From the NCBI GenBank assembly GCA_965204745.1, contig OZ242010.1, positions 2,656,001-2,720,000 on the forward strand: DNA of 64,000 bases. The letters are read 5' to 3'. Shown here one piece after another: positions 1 to 60,230 of the stretch. The notes beneath the pieces were generated by a model. The model had not been told where the DNA came from and did not search any database. It saw nothing but the letters and a program-made list of their open reading frames with translations. Within the stretch, counting starts at the first letter, position 1, and every line of letters starts with the position of its first letter. The translations under genes and the position numbers were made by a program. Source of the DNA: Candidatus Latescibacterota bacterium (GTDB lineage: Bacteria; Latescibacterota; UBA2968).

Positions 1-523
1 GAATATTCACCTGAATATCGCGTGCGATGAGACGTGTGCTGCGGATGTGGTAGCTCTGCGCGTGGTTGCGGCTCTGTTCGCGGATGATCTCCTGCTTGAG
101 TTGGTCAATGCGTCTGGTGAGGGCTTGCAGTTGAAGCCGTTGCTCGCTCGGCGCTTGCCAAGGCACAAAAGGCATGCGCTCGGCATAGTCGAGGATCAAC
201 AACGCATCCTTCGCATCCGTCTTCGCCCGTTGCATGCAGGCTTGGGCGTACTTGCTCATCGCTTTGGGATTGACGACCATGACCTTTGTGTGGCGATGCC
301 GATGCAAGGCCAAGGCCACCCCCAAACTGTAAAGCCCGGTCGCTTCGAGGCACACAGAGACCATGTGCCCGCCCTTCGTGAGCCACTTCAGCAACCGCTT
401 ATGCGCTTGGGGATCATTGGCAAAGGTCGCTTGCATGACAGCTTGTCCGGGTCTGGACAGGGCAACGGACAACGTGCGGGCACTGACATCAATGCCGGCA
501 AAAGCGGGGTGAGATTTCGACAT
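1..523 (-). CDS. IS110 DEDD recombinase, N-terminal part
   Basis: Same sequence as the 57672 gene: GIDVS, CLEATG and KTDAKDA motifs. Confidence 0.9.
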   Translation of the reverse strand, partial: MSKSHPAFAGIDVSARTLSVALSRPGQAVMQATFANDPQAHKRLLKWLTKGGHMVSVCLEATGLYSLGVALALHRHRHTKVMVVNPKAMSKYAQACMQRAKTDAKDALLILDYAERMPFVPWQAPSEQRLQLQALTRRIDQLKQEIIREQSRNHAQSYHIRSTRLIARDIQVNI

Positions 524-534
524 GGGGGCCTCCT

Positions 535-785
535 GTGATGAGGGGGTTGTAAGGGATCTGGTGCGCGCTCGGGGTCGCGTCCCGACCATTGACGCCAAGT
601 CTACCGGTCTTGTATATGCAGCCTCAAGGGGCTTAGATACTCTTCGGCATAGACCCGGCGGTCGGGGGGCCTATCTTACCTACAAGGTCATCGCCTTCAA
701 GAGGGGCCGGCCTTCCCCGAGCCGGGCATCAAGATGGCTTATCTCGATACGAGGGCGCAACTCCTAATTAACCCTTACTTCCAAG
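535..785 (-). ncRNA. putative bridge RNA region of IS110 copy 1
   Basis: Non-coding end upstream of the recombinase, identical to 57410-57660, which carries target- and donor-matching loops. Confidence 0.7.
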
Positions 786-788
786 ATA

Positions 789-1110
789 CAAGAGGTAAGA
801 GGCTAGAGGTAAGAAGTGAGAGGTGAGAAGTGAGAGGCGAGATGGAGGGTTAGCCACAAAAGGCACAAAAGGCACAAAAGGAGTACAGGGCGATAGCCGT
901 TCAAAGGCACGAGCGGAGTACAACTGGCGATAGCCCGTTCAAAGGCACGAGCGGGCAACTGGCGACAACCCGTTCAAAGGCGAGCAGTGTGTAGGGGCGA
1001 TGCCCCTGTGCTTGTTTTTCGCCTTTCGCGTCTTGCGTCTTGCGTCTCACCTCTTCCCGCTTGTTTTTCGCCTTTCGCGTCTTGCGTCTTGCGTCTCACC
1101 TCTTCCCGCT
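789..1110. repeat. cluster of purine-rich heptamers, GGCACAAAA nonamers, GTACAACTGGCGA units and a 49-bp tandem duplication (1010-1107)
   Basis: Read directly. Related units recur at 4005-4160 and, inverted, at 14040-14195. Confidence 0.8.
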
Positions 1111-53770: not shown

Positions 53771-56212
53771 CTATGTCCATGCCAACCCCATTTTTTGCAA
53801 GTGCCCCGCGACCTTGTCGCCAAACGTTGCCACTTCTCGCGCCAACTCGGGCAGAGGTTGCGCGTATCGCTCCTCCAATTCCTTCACCCGCGCGGCGAGT
53901 TGTTGGGTCAGCCGTTGCCCCTCGCTGTCGATCAAGGTCTGGATATCGGCAAACCATTTGTGCTCGATGACCAGCGTCTTGATCTCGGTCTCGGTCAGCG
54001 CGGCGTAGTGTTTCAGGGTTTGCTCGTCCAACTCGGTTTGGGCGTCCTTCACGGCTTTGTCGGCTTTGGACTTGGCTTGGAACAAGGCGAGGCAACACGC
54101 GAGGGCGGCGCGTTCTTCGTCGCTCTCGGGTTCGTCCCGAATGGCCTTGAGGCGGTTGACGACGTTGGTTTTGCCGACCGTCCCCTTGTCGTTGACGACG
54201 TCCTCTAACAGACCGCCCTCGCCGGTATGTTCCTCGACAAACTCCTCCAACTCGCGGGCCGCGTCCTCTTGGGCCACGCGCAACACAGCGAGAGCGGCTT
54301 GGTCCGCGGCAAAGTAGCGGGCGACAATTAGGGCCGGGGGGACCAAGTCCATCTTGTACTTCTCGCGCTTGATGGTCAAGTCCGGGGTTTCTTTGATCTT
54401 CTTTGCCTTATCCTCGATGATCCCGCGCGGCGCGGCTGCCTCGAGCCACCCGTCTGCTGCGATGAGATACACATCGTCCTGCATAGTCTCGTCCCAGTAA
54501 TCCATCAGGCATTGGTACACGTCGTAGCGGTCGAGCAGCGGAAGGTCGGCAAAGCGCGTCAGCAGATCCTCCGACAAGTCGTGGATGACCCCTGCGGGAC
54601 GGGCATCGACCGCAAGTGCCCAAAGGCGCGGTTTGTGGGCCTCGCGCCAAGCCGTGAAAACATCGGCAACGCGCCGCTGATAGGACTTGAACTCCGCGTG
54701 CCCGAGAATGACGGCCTTGACCCGTGCGGTCTCGACGCGGGCATCGCTGTAGCCGGCCCGACCGTTGCTTTGGAACAACACCCGGCGCAACGAGGGGAAG
54801 ACGGCCCAGTAATCGCGCAGGGCGTCGAGATCCCGGTCGGGAATGCCGCCGTTCAGATGCGCGTGGAGATCGTGCATGTCCTCTATCTCGCTGGCGTCGA
54901 TATAGCGCGGAATGTTGAGGTTGTAATCATTGGCCGGGCTACCGATCTCCGCGACGGACACCATGCGCGCATAGCCCGGTTGTTCGATCTGGTTGTTGAA
55001 CACATCCACAATCCGGTGAATGTCCTGCGCCCGCAGGCGGTTTTTGTTCCCCTCCTTGAGAAAGCCCCGGCTCGCGTCGATCATGAAAATGCCCTTGCGC
55101 GCATGGGCGTCTTTCTTGTCGATGACCAAAATGCACGCGGGAATGCCCGTGCCGTAGAACAGGTTGGCGGGCAGGCCGATGATACCCTTGATGAACCCGC
55201 GTCGGACGAGGTTTTTGCGAATGTCCGCCTCCTTGTTGCCGCGAAACAACACGCCGTGCGGCAGGATGATCGCGCCCTTGCCCCCGCGCTTGAGGGACTT
55301 GATGAGGTGCAGGAGAAAGGCGTAGTCCCCGTTCTTGGCTGGTGGGATGCCGTACTCGAACCGGCCAAATTCGTCATGTGCCGGATCGAATCCATTCGCC
55401 CATGCCTTGGCTGAAAACGGGGGATTGGCGATAGCAAAGTCGAAGGTCTTGAGCCCGTTGTCCGGGTTCTTGTAATAGGGCGATGCCAAGGTGTTGCCGC
55501 GCCACAACTCGGCGGTCTCGTGACCGTGCAAGATCATGTTCATCCGCGCCAAGGCCCAAGTGGCGTTGTCCATTTCCTGACCGTAGATGCTGATGCCGCG
55601 CGGCGCGATGTCCGCGGCTTTGAGCAGCAAGGAGCCAGAACCGCACGCGAGGTCGTAAATGGTCTGGTCTTGGCGCGTATTTTGGTCGATGCCGAGCACC
55701 TGCGCCATGACGCGCGAGACTTCGGCCGGGGTGTAGAACTGCCCCTTGGCCTTGCCGGACTCGGTGGCAAAGTGCCGCATCAGGTACTCGTAGGCGTCGC
55801 CCAACAGGTCGTCGTCCTCGGCGCGGTTGGCGCGAAAGTCGAGGCCCTCGAAAATGGCGACCAACTTGGAGAGGCGGTCTTGCATCTCCTTGCCCGTGCC
55901 GAGTTTGCTCTCGTCGTTGAAGTCGGCCTGATCGATAACGCCCTTGAGGTCGTTGGCCTCTGCGAGCTTGCCGATGATCTTGTTGATGCGGTCGCCGATC
56001 TCCTTGTCGCCCTTGAGCGCGGCCATGTCGGCAAAGCCGCCTCCTTCGGGCACTTCGATGAGCGCGTCCTGCTTGCCGGCCTTGTCCGAGACATATTTCA
56101 TGAACAACAAGGTCAGCACGTAGTCCTTGTACTGCGAGGCGTCCATGCCGCCGCGCAATTCGTCGCAACTCTGCCAAAGCGATGCGTAGATTTGGGATTT
56201 CTTCAGCGCCAT
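53771..56212 (-). CDS. hsdM: type I R-M methyltransferase
   Basis: LRGGMDASQYKDY, GQFYTP, ACGSGSLL, ANPPFS, YNLNIPRY; start at MALKKS. Confidence 0.96.
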   Translation of the reverse strand: MALKKSQIYASLWQSCDELRGGMDASQYKDYVLTLLFMKYVSDKAGKQDALIEVPEGGGFADMAALKGDKEIGDRINKIIGKLAEANDLKGVIDQADFNDESKLGTGKEMQDRLSKLVAIFEGLDFRANRAEDDDLLGDAYEYLMRHFATESGKAKGQFYTPAEVSRVMAQVLGIDQNTRQDQTIYDLACGSGSLLLKAADIAPRGISIYGQEMDNATWALARMNMILHGHETAELWRGNTLASPYYKNPDNGLKTFDFAIANPPFSAKAWANGFDPAHDEFGRFEYGIPPAKNGDYAFLLHLIKSLKRGGKGAIILPHGVLFRGNKEADIRKNLVRRGFIKGIIGLPANLFYGTGIPACILVIDKKDAHARKGIFMIDASRGFLKEGNKNRLRAQDIHRIVDVFNNQIEQPGYARMVSVAEIGSPANDYNLNIPRYIDASEIEDMHDLHAHLNGGIPDRDLDALRDYWAVFPSLRRVLFQSNGRAGYSDARVETARVKAVILGHAEFKSYQRRVADVFTAWREAHKPRLWALAVDARPAGVIHDLSEDLLTRFADLPLLDRYDVYQCLMDYWDETMQDDVYLIAADGWLEAAAPRGIIEDKAKKIKETPDLTIKREKYKMDLVPPALIVARYFAADQAALAVLRVAQEDAARELEEFVEEHTGEGGLLEDVVNDKGTVGKTNVVNRLKAIRDEPESDEERAALACCLALFQAKSKADKAVKDAQTELDEQTLKHYAALTETEIKTLVIEHKWFADIQTLIDSEGQRLTQQLAARVKELEERYAQPLPELAREVATFGDKVAGHLQKMGLAWT

Positions 56213-56461
56213 GTGTGTTTCTCCGTGGTTATACCAATACCAAACAAAAGCATGCCTACAACGCAACAAATAATAGACGGAATGGGGTACAACTGGCCGG
56301 TTCCCAGTCCATCGTAGGGACAGGCACAGGGGCCTGTCCGAGTAGGATTGCTCCGCGGCACCACGCAAGCCTCCCGCCAGTTGAGTATAACTGCGATAGT
56401 CCATCGTAGGGACAGGCCGAAATTCTCCTCATGTACTTGAAGTTGAAAACCGATAGCTCCC

Positions 56462-57223
56462 CTACCATTCATTGCCGTGATACCGCTTGCCGCGCAACTT
56501 TAATTTTCGTCGCTTCTGGGATTCTTCTTCTCGCTCTCGCATCGCATTGAGAATCCGCGCTGCTTCCTCGGGCGTCATCTCCTCGGGCTGTGCTTGTCGT
56601 TCCTCTCGCTGCTGATCTTCCCGATTGTCATCCGCATTCTGGTCTTGCTGGCCTTGCTGTTGTTGATCTTGCTGATTCTGCTGTTGCTGATCCTGCTCAT
56701 CCTGTCCATCCTGATTTTGCTGGTCTTGCTGGTCTTGCTGGTCTTGCTGGTCTTGCTGTTGCTGATCTTGTTGATCCTGTCCCTTCTGTTGCTGTTTGTC
56801 CCGATCTAGTTTTTCCAACGCCAATTCCAGATTCGCTTTGGCATCCACATCCCCCGGATTCAGTTGTAGCGATTTTTTGTACGCGCCGACAGCTTCTTGA
56901 AATTTCTCCTGCCGAAACAGCGCGTTGCCCAAATTGTAGTACGCGGACGCGGCCAAATGCGGGTGATCGCCCTCCGCAGCGCGGCCTAGTTCCTGCATGG
57001 CCTCGGCGTACTTGCCCTGCTTGTAGAGCGCGTCTCCAGCATTAAAATGCAGTGCCGGACGATCTCGCGCCTCTTGTTGCGCTTCCAAATACCGGCGCAA
57101 CGCGGCTTCGTACTCGCCCTTTTCAAACAGGGCATTGCCCTCTGCGTTCTTTTTTGCCACGGGATCGAGAAACGTCCATCCCAACAACGGCAATGCCAGC
57201 AGAATCAACAAAAATCGTTTCAT
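56462..57223 (-). CDS. BatC-like TPR protein with a Q/D-rich tail
   Basis: TPR motifs (AYYNLGNALF, AKANLELA), poly-QD, terminal W. Confidence 0.85.
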   Translation of the reverse strand: MKRFLLILLALPLLGWTFLDPVAKKNAEGNALFEKGEYEAALRRYLEAQQEARDRPALHFNAGDALYKQGKYAEAMQELGRAAEGDHPHLAASAYYNLGNALFRQEKFQEAVGAYKKSLQLNPGDVDAKANLELALEKLDRDKQQQKGQDQQDQQQQDQQDQQDQQDQQNQDGQDEQDQQQQNQQDQQQQGQQDQNADDNREDQQREERQAQPEEMTPEEAARILNAMREREEESQKRRKLKLRGKRYHGNEW

Positions 57224-57439
57224 AATTTTCTCCTTTAGCGTCTCATCCCCGCCGCCGCGCCGCTACCCAAGTGCGTGCCCCGCTATGTCCGCACCGCCAC
57301 CCGTGCGTGCCCAGCCCTGCATCCACACCGCCGTGTGCGTTGTCCCGGCTCATATTCCCCGACCTCTTGTATCTTCGGGCGAGCGCGGTGGCCTTCTCCC
57401 CTCTTGTATCTTGGAAGTAAGGGTTAATTAGGAGTTGCG

Positions 57440-57605
57440 CCCTCGTATCGAGATAAGCCATCTTGATGCCCGGCTCGGGGAAGGCCGGCCCCTCTTGAAG
57501 GCGATGACCTTGTAGGTAAGATAGGCCCCCCGACCGCCGGGTCTATGCCGAAGAGTATCTAAGCCCCTTGAGGCTGCATATACAAGACCGGTAGACTTGG
57601 CGTCA
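57440..57605 (+). ncRNA. putative bridge RNA (target- and donor-binding loops); ends approximate
   Basis: Two internal-loop hairpins whose loop strands match the target flanks and the element ends. Confidence 0.75.
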
Positions 57606-57671
57606 ATGGTCGGGACGCGACCCCGAGCGCGCACCAGATCCCTTACAACCCCCTCATCACAGGAGGCCCCC

Positions 57672-58679
57672 ATGTCGAAATCTCACCCCGCTTTTGCCGG
57701 CATTGATGTCAGTGCCCGCACGTTGTCCGTTGCCCTGTCCAGACCCGGACAAGCTGTCATGCAAGCGACCTTTGCCAATGATCCCCAAGCGCATAAGCGG
57801 TTGCTGAAGTGGCTCACGAAGGGCGGGCACATGGTCTCTGTGTGCCTCGAAGCGACCGGGCTTTACAGTTTGGGGGTGGCCTTGGCCTTGCATCGGCATC
57901 GCCACACAAAGGTCATGGTCGTCAATCCCAAAGCGATGAGCAAGTACGCCCAAGCCTGCATGCAACGGGCGAAGACGGATGCGAAGGATGCGTTGTTGAT
58001 CCTCGACTATGCCGAGCGCATGCCTTTTGTGCCTTGGCAAGCGCCGAGCGAGCAACGGCTTCAACTGCAAGCCCTCACCAGACGCATTGACCAACTCAAG
58101 CAGGAGATCATCCGCGAACAGAGCCGCAACCACGCGCAGAGCTACCACATCCGCAGCACACGTCTCATCGCACGCGATATTCAGGTGAATATTCGACACT
58201 TCAAACGCCGGATTGCATACTTGGAAAGCCAAGCCCTCGATCTCGTTTTGCACGATGAGCCCCTCAAGCGTGCCTACCAACGCCTCTGCTCGACGCCTGG
58301 CATCGCGCAAACGAGTGCCTTGCGGCTCTTGGCCGAGTTGACCCTTTTGCCAGAGGAGATGCAACCGCCCCAGTGGGTCGCACATGCAGGCCTGGATCCC
58401 AAACCCAAACAATCCGGAACCGCCAATCCACAAAGACGCATCTCGAAAACCGGGAATAAGTACCTCCGCCATGCCCTCTATATGCCTGCCTGGGTGGCCA
58501 TCAGACACGAAGGCCATGTCAAAGCCTTCTATGACCAACTCATCGCCCGCGGCAAGAAACCTTTGCAGGCTATCGTTGCGGTGATGCGAAAGTTGCTCCA
58601 TTCGATCTGGGGCATGTTGCGCCATGACCAAGATTTTGAGGGCGAAAAATTCTATCGAATCACCCCGAAAACCCCTTGA
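57672..58679 (+). CDS. IS110 recombinase (DEDD RuvC-like + Tnp20)
   Basis: GIDVS, LEATG, KTDAKDA, PGIA, AGLDPKPKQSG, ISKTGNKYLR; AGGAGG RBS. Confidence 0.95.
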   Translation: MSKSHPAFAGIDVSARTLSVALSRPGQAVMQATFANDPQAHKRLLKWLTKGGHMVSVCLEATGLYSLGVALALHRHRHTKVMVVNPKAMSKYAQACMQRAKTDAKDALLILDYAERMPFVPWQAPSEQRLQLQALTRRIDQLKQEIIREQSRNHAQSYHIRSTRLIARDIQVNIRHFKRRIAYLESQALDLVLHDEPLKRAYQRLCSTPGIAQTSALRLLAELTLLPEEMQPPQWVAHAGLDPKPKQSGTANPQRRISKTGNKYLRHALYMPAWVAIRHEGHVKAFYDQLIARGKKPLQAIVAVMRKLLHSIWGMLRHDQDFEGEKFYRITPKTP

Positions 58680-58711
58680 CCTTTTAAGAGAGTATCTTGC
58701 CTCTCCCCCTC

Positions 58712-59737
58712 TTACCCCTCAAATCGTCCGCGCCACGCTTCGCGTTCTCGGCGGCGGTCGGACAACAGGGCCTCGCTGGCAAAGCACAGCAGGGCGAGCG
58801 CGAGGGGCCATTGAAATCGGTGGATGTATTGGGCGTAACGCTGCGTGCCCAAATCGCGCTTCTCCATCTCGGAAATCCGGTCGTACACGGCTTGCAAGCC
58901 AATGCCCCCACTGCTAGCGCGCACGTACAACCCGTCGGTGATGCGGGCGATCTCCTTCAAAGTCGCCTCGTCCAAGCGCGTCTTCACGATCTTGCCCTCG
59001 GCATCCTTCAAATAATCCACGCGGTCGCCATCGCGCAGGGGAATCAACTCGCCCTCTGCCGTGCCCACGCCCACGGCAAAAATTCGCACGCCTCGTTCAG
59101 CGGCGGCCCGTGCAGCGGCGATGGGATCATCCGCGTGATCCTCGCCATCGGTAATCAAAATCAACGCCTTGTACTTGCCCTCGGTTGCCCCAAATCCCCG
59201 AATGGCCGTGCGAATGGCCTCGGCAACCGCTGTGCCCTGTTCCGCGATGAGGCCCACATCGGCCTGTCCCAAAAACATCTTGGCCGCGGCGTAATCCAAC
59301 GTGAGCGGGCAGAGCACATGGCTATACCCAGCAAATGCCACCAACCCGATGCGGTCGCCTTCGAGGCGGTCGATCAGCCCTTCAATTTCAAATCGCGCGC
59401 GGTCGAGGCGGTTGGGCTTGATATCCTCGGCCAGCATGCTCAAGGACGTATCCAGCACGATCACCAAATCCACGCCCTTGCGGTGAATCACCTCCAACTC
59501 CGTGCCGAACTGCGGTTGCACCAGTGCCAGCACCAAAAACGCAAACCCCACGCACATCAGCGCGGCCTTGATCCCCTGCCGAACCCGGCTCACGCCCGAC
59601 GCGAGTTTGTCCATCAACGCGGGCGCGCCAAATGCGTGCAATGCCTTCCGCTTGCGCCAAAACGCCCACCAGTAAAACAGCGCGAACACCGGCACCCCGA
59701 TCAAAAAATAAAACGCCTGTAGATCGCCAAATCGCAT
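58712..59737 (-). CDS. BatB-like VWA domain membrane protein
   Basis: LDTSLSM MIDAS, PNRL.RA, PLTLDY, LITDGED. Confidence 0.9.
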   Translation of the reverse strand: MRFGDLQAFYFLIGVPVFALFYWWAFWRKRKALHAFGAPALMDKLASGVSRVRQGIKAALMCVGFAFLVLALVQPQFGTELEVIHRKGVDLVIVLDTSLSMLAEDIKPNRLDRARFEIEGLIDRLEGDRIGLVAFAGYSHVLCPLTLDYAAAKMFLGQADVGLIAEQGTAVAEAIRTAIRGFGATEGKYKALILITDGEDHADDPIAAARAAAERGVRIFAVGVGTAEGELIPLRDGDRVDYLKDAEGKIVKTRLDEATLKEIARITDGLYVRASSGGIGLQAVYDRISEMEKRDLGTQRYAQYIHRFQWPLALALLCFASEALLSDRRREREAWRGRFEG

Positions 59738-59844
59738 CTCATCACCTCTCGTATCTTCGGACGAGCACAGGGGCACCGCCCCTACGGGTCTCACCTCTCG
59801 CCTCTCCTGTCTTCCCTCTTACCAAAGGGGGTTGGGCGGGGCGG

Positions 59845-59990
59845 ACTGACCACTGACCACTGACCACTGACCACTGACCACTGACCACTGACCACTGACC
59901 ACTGACCACTGACCACTGACCACTGACCACTGACCACTGACCACTGACCACTGACCACTGACCACTGACCACTGACCACTGACCACTGAC
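59845..59990. repeat. perfect heptamer array (ACTGACC), about 21 copies
   Basis: Read directly; shorter copies near 4200, 12165, 26352, 28155 and 62272. Confidence 0.95.
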
Positions 59991-60230
59991 AATGCGAATT
60001 AAGAGTAGAAAGCGAGTAAGAAGCAAGCCGCGGCCAATCGCCCAAAGACATGAACGAGTAAGCCATCCTCTGATCGTACCCGAGACGCCATCGAGATGTT
60101 TGTCTTTTGTTCAATCCAACTAAACAAGGCCGCTATCGGCTGTCGCATGCTCGAAACCGCTGAGGGTGAAATTGGTTGCGCCCTCAAGAAAAGACAAGTA
60201 CGCGATGGATTCAACGCTTAATTCGCATTG
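59990..60230 (-). mobile_element. internally deleted IS (MITE) retaining the transposase C-terminus
   Basis: 14-bp terminal IRs CAATGCGAATTAAG / CTTAATTCGCATTG; RQPI..LFSWIEQKT.I..ASRVRS..GL.VHVFGRLAAA resembles a DDE transposase end. Confidence 0.8.

Follow-up and report, generated by a model that had tools for sequence, protein, structure and literature searches.

The window analysed here, 64,000 nucleotides (nt) of a Candidatus Latescibacterota bacterium (GenBank assembly GCA_965204745.1, contig OZ242010.1, positions 2,656,001 to 2,720,000 of the forward strand), very probably contains at 57405-58697 (+) one of 52 full-length copies of an insertion sequence (IS) of the IS110 group with an IS621-like bridge RNA. 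The anatomy of the element, its boundaries, the logo of its targets, the covariation of its guides with its sites and the conserved fold of its RNA were established in this analysis. An initial annotation, made by eye from the letters of the window, had recognized an IS110 element with target- and donor-binding loops in the non-coding left end. This recognition held. The left boundary and the core that it had proposed, on the other hand, had to be revised.

The 335-aa protein of the element matched the Pfam domains PF01548 (E 1.2e-24) and PF02371 (E 4.8e-20) and the NCBIfam model NF033542, 'IS110 family RNA-guided transposase' (213.8 bits against a cutoff of 140). Its best relatives among solved structures in the PDB, searched with phmmer, were the recombinases of ISCro4 (PDB 9t56; E 7.6e-40, residues 7-326) and IS621 (E 5.8e-36). 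In the phmmer alignment to 8wt6, with a presumed chain-numbering offset of 2, residues D12, E60, D103, D106 and S248 stood opposite the catalytic D11, E60, D102, D105 and S241 of IS621 (Hiraizumi et al., 2024, PMC11208158). The non-coding left end measures 267 nt and the right end extends 16 nt past the open reading frame (ORF). A long left end and a short right end are the layout of the IS110 group (Durrant et al., 2024, PMC11208160). In agreement with this group, neither long sub-terminal inverted repeats nor a target-site duplication beyond the core was found. A megablast search of a plasmid collection with the whole element gave no match. The features of the element and of its site are collected in Table 1.

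Table 1. Positions, in the window, of the element, its recombinase, its bridge RNA parts and its junctions. LT and RT, left and right target; LD and RD, left and right donor; LTG, RTG, LDG and RDG, the corresponding guides; TBL and DBL, target- and donor-binding loop; MFE, minimum free energy.
Feature	Position	Strand	Basis
Second, identical copy ('copy 1'), 5′ part, cut by the window start	1..790	-	Copy table
LT of the window copy, CTCCCCT, last heptamer-array bases before the core	57396..57402	+	37-site logo; empty paralogous sites
Left copy of the CT core	57403..57404	+	Only block common to donor and target in genomes A, B and C; counterpart of the IS621 CT core
Insertion sequence, 1293 bp	57405..58697	+	From left end TGTAT... 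to ...AGAGTAT plus one core CT; span common to 52 full-length copies; absent from empty sites
RD TGTAT, read by RDG	57405..57409	+	Reverse complement of 57580-57584; equals IS621 donor positions 10-14
Putative -10-like hexamer TATCTT, promoter part only once joined to the right end	57407..57412	+	Computed circle junction
5′ stem-loop of the bridge RNA, predicted	57445..57469	+	MFE fold only
TBL: basal GGCC/GGCC stem, LTG, AAGG/CCUU hairpin, RTG, handshake guide	57483..57527	+	13-sequence consensus fold; hairpin with one compensatory change
LTG CCCCUCU, equal to consensus top-strand LT(5) + core	57489..57495	+	Variants CGCCUCU, UCCCUCU and UGCCUCU track their own sites
RTG AGGUAAG, complementary to CT + TACCT	57514..57520	+	Variants AAGUAAG, AGGUGAG, AGAAAAG, GGGAG and CCGUUAG covary with the RT at their own sites
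TBL handshake guide AUA, complementary to the last three left-donor bases TAT	57521..57523	+	Role by analogy with IS621 nucleotides 81-82
DBL: long basal stem, LDG, AGCC/GGCU hairpin, RDG, handshake guide	57529..57614	+	Folds; compensatory pairs at alignment columns 133:199, 138:195, 139:194 and 162:171
LDG AGAGUAUCU, equal to top-strand LD(7) + core	57552..57560	+	Identical to 58689-58697
RDG AUACAAG, complementary to CT + TGTAT, contiguous 7/7	57580..57586	+	Direct reading
DBL handshake guide AC; A can pair with LT position -1 (T)	57587..57588	+	Analogy with IS621 nucleotides 166-167
IS110-family DEDD/serine recombinase, 335 aa	57672..58679	+	Pfam, NF033542 and PDB matches; catalytic residues aligned
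Putative -35-like hexamer TTGACC in the right end	58676..58681	+	Direct reading; computed junction
LD AGAGTAT, last right-end bases	58689..58695	+	Direct reading; copy table
Right copy of the CT core	58696..58697	+	Flank variable directly after it
RT TGCCTCT of the window copy	58698..58704	+	Direct reading; logo

Ends of the element and its core

A blastn search of the genome with the element interior returned 64 high-scoring segment pairs, among them the 52 full-length copies (37 at >=99% identity, 10 at 95-96% and 5 at ~89%). All 52 left junctions read ..CCTCT TGTAT[C/G]TTG.., with the flank variable directly upstream of CCT, and all right junctions read ..AGAGTATCT, with the flank variable directly after it (TA, TG, CC or CA). 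The initial annotation had let the element start at or after TATCT and had proposed CCTCTTG-TATCT-TGCCT as the empty target, with a core of 5-7 nt. The empty site was rebuilt in both versions for each of the 52 copies, and both were sought in the genome. Paralogous empty sites read ...CCTCT|TRCC..., without TGTATCT, and joined the left flank ..CCTCT to the right flank in full-length, ungapped matches. Such sites were found at 2082430-2082499 for IS 288695 (98.6% over 70/70), at 4699861-4699930 for IS 216692 (97.1% over 70/70), at 2647548-2647481 for IS 956900 (98.5% over 68 nt) and at 1421727-1421794 for IS 1425129. The version first proposed fitted the same loci only with a 7-nt gap. Its 17-mer CCTCTTG-TATCT-TRCCT occurred nowhere in the genome and its 13-mer core CTTGTATCTTRCC twice; CCCCTCTTRCCT occurred 70 times. 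Because the paralogous empty sites lack TGTATCT, the element spans 57405-58697 with one CT counted, and its left boundary lies 7 nt to the left of the one first drawn. Judging from these sequences, TGTATCT is part of the element. A refuting observation had been named, namely copies inserted at sites without relation to CCTCTTGTATCTT; it cannot discriminate, because 8 of these 13 bases are the element's own end.

The block common to donor and target was TCTT at 48 of the 52 sites and TCT at the other 4. In related elements it was TCT in a Latescibacterota chromosome (genome B) and CTT in a second Latescibacteria chromosome (genome C), so that only CT is common to all. Moreover, the longer core first proposed differs between the two ends of the five 89% copies, with GT on the left and CT on the right. 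By this comparison the core is CT, the usual two-base crossover, as in IS621. The cut position within the TCTT of this genome is finer than sequence alone can place.

Guides, fold and proposed action of the bridge RNA

The guides were read by the rules of Durrant et al. (2024, PMC11208160) and Hiraizumi et al. (2024, PMC11208158). In these, LTG and LDG pair with the bottom strand and hence equal the top-strand LT or LD plus core, and two 'handshake' bases directly 3′ of RTG and of RDG pair, once the strands have been exchanged, with the other DNA. All four guides were present, in the correct order and in the correct loops. Four words were tested for chance occurrence: LD plus core as a 9-mer (AGAGTATCT) and, as 7-mers, the reverse complement of core plus RD (ATACAAG), the consensus LT plus core (CCCCTCT) and the reverse complement of core plus RT (AGGTAAG). 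The control was 20,000 dinucleotide-preserving shuffles of 57415-57672. All four words were found in 0/20,000 shuffles, and two or more in 31/20,000; the guides are therefore not due to chance.

The strings named by the initial annotation were all found in place: CCTCTTG at 57491-57497, GGCC at 57487-57490 and 57524-57527, AAGG at 57498-57501, CCTT at 57508-57511, TACAAGA at 57581-57587, and AGAGTATCT at 57552-57560 as at 58689-58697. Likewise, AGGTAAGATA at 57514-57523 is exactly reverse complementary to TATCTTACCT and forms pairs with the window copy's TATCTTGCCT, one of them a G:U that falls between the RTG and the TGCCT of this copy. Copy 1 also reads ..CCTCT|TGTATCTTGG. The roles of these strings shifted with the register. 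AGGTAAGATA is the RTG plus its handshake guide, and CCTCTTG combines the core with three LT bases before it and two linker bases after it. TACAAGA, proposed to match TCTTGGA at 6/7, is the RDG shifted by one base and set against the wrong end; ATACAAG at 57580-57586 is the 7/7 complement of CT + TGTAT at the true left end.

In the register first proposed, the core would fall outside the LTG, the RDG would be reduced to 4 matching bases instead of 7/7, the circle junction would be AGAGTATCTTGGAAG and identity with the IS621 donor would be lost. That register does draw on real features of the locus, namely GTATCTT(G) at both junctions of the integrated element, CCTCTTG in the target loop and 71 IS-free CCTCTTGTAT sites in the genome, by which the string is not exclusive to the IS. 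However, TRCCT follows none of these IS-free sites, the predicted empty target is missing from the genome, the paralogous empty sites lack TGTATCT and the proposed core differs between the ends of the 89% copies. This register is thus contradicted, and we consider it extremely improbable.

The single-sequence fold of 57405-57672 (-103 kcal/mol) contained, besides the 5′ stem-loop, two loops. One is closed by GGCC/GGCC and encloses the AAGG/CCUU hairpin; the other is closed by a long stem, 57529-57550/57589-57614, and encloses the AGCC/GGCU hairpin. A consensus fold was computed from 13 sequences (5 variants of this genome, 3 of genome C, 4 of genome B and 1 of a Gemmatimonadota contig). It kept the stems of both loops, with GGCC:GGCC invariant in 13/13 and compensatory changes in 5/48 pairs, including columns 133:199 (GC to AU, 4 sequences) and 98:105. 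In this fold the TBL is closed with the first GGCC (57483-57486), leaving a 9-nt LTG strand as in IS621. Part of the LTG is paired there with part of the RTG, which is taken to be a by-product of their shared core. The handshake AUA did not vary among the parsed copies (77/77). Directly after the RDG stands A in this genome (LT -1 = T) and G in genome C (LT -1 = C).

By homology with characterized IS110 elements, bridge RNA transcription, a circular intermediate and catalysis would be expected here as well. The element would be excised as a circle, in which the right end (...TTGACC...AGAGTAT) is joined through CT to the left end (TGTATCTT...). The resulting junction, AGAGTAT-CT-TGTATCTTGG, would be read by LDG and RDG and could form a sigma-70-like promoter for a ~200-nt bridge RNA from the left end. 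In the target loop, the LTG would represent the top strand ..CCCCT-CT and the RTG would pair with CT-TACCT. The recombinase would then exchange strands at CT, placing the element in CCTCTYR arrays at ..CCCCT-CT-TRCCT. A reconstituted junction promoter has been reported for IS621 (PMC11208160, PMC11208158). A promoter scan of the integrated copy returned 0 sites.

Targets, copies and covariation of guides with sites

The logo of 37 main-family sites was TCTCCCCT-CT-TRCCTCT, and the flanks were tandem arrays of CCTCTYR-like heptamers. Heptamer runs of >=3 units numbered 672 on both strands, versus 1 in a shuffled megabase. The sequence CC at positions -5/-4 was present at 31/37 insertion sites compared with 10.5% of all 668 CCTCTTRCCT sites (binomial p 5e-25); therefore, array context alone does not explain site choice, and the earlier proposal that the element is aimed at the host's CCTCTYR arrays is borne out. 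Among the 45 copies with main guides, 20 lie at CCCCTCT|TACCT and 17 at CCCCTCT|TGCCT, and 5 and 65 such sites are still empty. Perfect TACCT sites were thus occupied in 20/25 cases, versus 17/82 for the G:U-wobble TGCCT sites (odds ratio 15, p 1.2e-7).

The heptamers form intergenic mosaics, for example at 57240-57404 and 58698-58730, in which tandem CCTCTYR units and variants often occur with inverted copies and GC hairpins. They are reminiscent of the mosaics of bacterial interspersed mosaic elements and repetitive extragenic palindromes (REP). A second heptamer family (CCACTGA/ACTGACC type) lies at ~59790-60030, with a spurious repetitive minus-strand ORF (SVVSGQW repeats), and recurs in many IS flanks.

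Guides and sites were compared among the subfamilies of this genome and 26 related loci, 18 in genome B, 7 in genome C and 1 on the Gemmatimonadota contig. In the 89% subfamily, the LTG is CGCCUCU or UGCCUCU and the RTG is AAGUAAG. Before CT, its sites read CGCCT in 3/5 cases, CACCT in one and TACCT in one; after CT they read TACTT in 4/5 and TACCT in one. Copy 1297051 has the LTG UCCCUCU, a change of the next base from U to C and the RTG AGGUGAG, all three of which match its own site TCCCT-CT-CACCT. That next base, immediately after the core in the LTG (57496), also matches RT+1, and both changed together in this copy. Pairing of the LTG may accordingly extend one base beyond the core and so overlap that of the RTG by 3 nt, which would be the sole remnant of the 'longer core'. 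The loci of genome B (76-78% amino acid identity) have the LTG (U)CGCCUCU, the RTG GGGAG and sites of the form ..[CG/CA/TA/TG]CCT-CT-CCCGT. Those of genome C (80-84%) have the LTG UCCUC-CU or UCCCC-CU and the RTG AGAAAAG (one AGGAAAG), with TTTCT as RT in 6/7 loci. On the Gemmatimonadota contig (48%), the RTG CCGUUAG is a perfect match to the RT AACGG; the left flank is off the contig.

Guides were scored over five positions each, with a wobble counted as half. For 8/8 guide classes (77 copies, 3 genomes), LTG and RTG alike scored higher on the class's own sites than on those of the other classes. In the main class, the scores were 4.82 (LTG) and 4.63 (RTG) on its own sites versus 3.58 and 2.95 on the others. 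The donor guides and donor ends were nearly invariant throughout the copies and relatives; according to Durrant et al. (2024, PMC11208160), the donor is better conserved in these elements than the target is.

A choice of target made mainly by the protein, or by the DNA structure of the repeat mosaic, with RNA complementarity secondary, is opposed by this base-for-base covariation of LTG and RTG with the sites, seen in 8 guide classes and 4 genomes. For the IS110 element ISPpu10, the available text of a preprint proposes a sequence-plus-structure requirement for the target (bioRxiv 10.64898/2026.03.19.712850), and in the present element LT positions -8 to -6 are conserved though unmatched by the RNA. 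Conservation at these positions is, however, expected from the heptamer periodicity, and we give a mainly structural or protein-based choice next to no weight.

Several observations weigh against the reading of the left end as an IS621-like bridge RNA that directs insertion, or reduce what can be claimed for it. The gain of the single-sequence fold is modest (z -2.25), since 6/200 shuffles fold as well. The 5′ stem-loop was absent from the 13-sequence consensus fold. A search of 57200-58900 against Rfam 15 gave 0 matches at E<=1 with permissive thresholds, the presence of a bridge RNA model in Rfam 15 being not ascertained. The LTG matches 5 LT bases, not 7, and the CT at -6/-7 of the logo is unmatched by GG in the RNA. 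The array itself is repetitive, and its context, not selection by the guide, accounts for some of the conservation in the logo. Copy 1297051 has one LDG mismatch. Copy 602797 lies at a site that its own target guides do not fit but those of 1297051 do, owing either to action of the RNA in trans or to a later change of the guides. The putative promoter of the computed circle junction (TTGACC, an 18-nt spacer and TATCTT) was read by eye and matches the consensus at 9/12 positions. Finally, contigs of four sequencing runs over 56900-59200 contained no element-skipping joint and no circle junction, a result uninformative on expression or excision.

Over the IS, the summed depth of the same contigs was higher, and they were broken near 57395-57407 and 58702-58707. 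Five contig sets labelled as sponge metagenome contain most of the element's words, and four subfamily-type variants are visible as alternative letters.

The missing circle junction would also suit the view that the copies are fossils, or were spread by heptamer-array recombination or segmental duplication, so that the guide matches are historical and the element is inactive. One copy with a broken ORF and the presence of all five 89% copies in one repeated host module point the same way. On the other hand, the 335-aa ORF is intact in 51/52 copies and the protein is identical in 34, and these 34 are also identical in the non-coding end, for which 10 variants exist among the 52 copies, although their flanks are unrelated. 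In addition, perfect sites are preferentially filled, and the empty paralogues of the host module outnumber the occupied ones, with 15-22 matches per query. Inactivity or passive spread is thus highly unlikely. The intact ORFs and identical proteins apparently reflect recent activity of the element.

The host module of the five 89% copies (216692, 288695, 1307081, 2197904 and 3989031) reads ..GGTGGCTCTCG CCTCT TACTTCTTGCCTCTTACTTGGGGATAGGGCTTGCGG.., and its 15-22 paralogues per query are unoccupied. At 1121607-1124185 (-) of the genome, two copies stand in tandem (100% and 96% subfamily) with only CT-TACCT-CT between them.

These data may be seen as natural bridge RNA reprogramming in progress, a proposal that we make tentatively and hold to be rather doubtful. 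In it, the main guides have filled 20/25 of their perfect sites, and minority guides with 1-3-base changes open new ones (CGCCT-CT-TACTT and TCCCT-CT-CACCT). It also includes the suggested action in trans, the possible reading of the LTG past the core and a role of the 71 IS-free modules as relic or decoy half-sites.

Comparison with known systems and neighbourhood of the element

The element shares with IS621 of E. coli the Pfam domains and the aligned catalytic D, E, D, D and S. It also shares the bridge RNA's position within a long left end, with the order 5′ stem-loop, target loop, donor loop. The guide logic is the same: LTG and LDG have the sequence of the top strand with the core, RTG and RDG are the complement of the core and the right side, the core is CT, the LDG has 9 nt and the handshake bases lie directly 3′ of RTG and RDG. 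The donor AGAGTAT-CT-TGTAT is identical at IS621 positions 6-14 (A T C T T G T A T), which in IS621 are dA6, dT7, dC8, dT9, dT10, dG11, dT12, dA13 and dT14 (Hiraizumi et al., 2024, PMC11208158). Both have a -35 element in the right end and a -10 element in the left end, putative in the present case, and both insert into intergenic repeats.

In contrast, the recombinase is only distantly related to that of IS621 (phmmer E 5.8e-36). The RTG has 7 nt (2+5) instead of 4, the RDG is a contiguous 7 nt instead of being split with flipped-out bases, and 5 instead of 7 LT bases are matched. Two linker bases, UG, follow the LTG, the first being the base that matches RT+1 and covaries in one copy. The target is a tandem heptamer array here and a REP palindrome for IS621, and 52 copies are present in one genome. 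Bridge RNAs are found in most IS110 elements, and some orthologues have longer RTGs (Durrant et al., 2024, PMC11208160). The element is IS621-type in all defining features tested; the differences are of degree, and no new mechanism is brought to light.

ISCro4, the best solved-structure match, was compared at the protein level only. ISPpu10 of Pseudomonas putida is likewise an IS110 element, with all insertions in copies of one conserved intergenic repeat according to the available preprint text (bioRxiv 10.64898/2026.03.19.712850); host and repeat differ from those described here. The IS1111 group, with its seekRNA, has the same recombinase family and RNA-guided targeting. In IS1111, however, the RNA lies in a long right end and long sub-terminal inverted repeats are present, whereas here the left end is the long one. 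A literature search found no paper joining IS110 with heptamer or Latescibacter, which is the sole basis for calling the target undescribed, and the orthologue tables of Durrant et al. may list the element or relatives of it.

With 52 copies, three guide variants in one genome and more in relatives, the element lets the bridge RNA code be read cleanly in a natural setting. Its agreement with the IS621 rules (an LTG identical to the top strand, a complementary RTG, a CT core and handshake bases) speaks for their generality in a phylum that has not been cultured. Being present in many copies and apparently active in recent times, this orthologue is a candidate for the engineering of recombinases. 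It is chiefly valuable as a neat illustration, from nature, of how guides are reprogrammed and sites become saturated.

The 71 IS-free CCTCTTGTAT(CTT) modules are spread genome-wide, one of them at 57363-57375 of the window, and share CT and the first 8 nt of the left end. Of these, 33/71 start CCTCTTGTATCTT[T/C]GGGCGA..TCGCCC (hairpin) and continue into further repeat modules. These CCTCT-TGTATCTT modules look like left junctions (LT-core-RD) without an element. The AGAGTAT end or GAGTATC was found within 400 nt downstream of them only where a true IS was nearby. A reading of the modules as miniature inverted-repeat transposable elements was rejected, because the left-donor end read by the bridge RNA is lacking. 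They may be relic or decoy half-sites for bridge-RNA-driven rearrangement of the repeat mosaic. Similar modules flank related IS in another Latescibacterota genome (L045, L050 and L054).

Three minus-strand ORFs near the element were assigned by eye. The ORF at 53771-56404 encodes a large protein like the N6-adenine methylase of a type I restriction system, that at 56462-57223 is TPR-like with a Q/D-rich tail, and that at 58712-59794 resembles a VWA-domain BatA-like protein.

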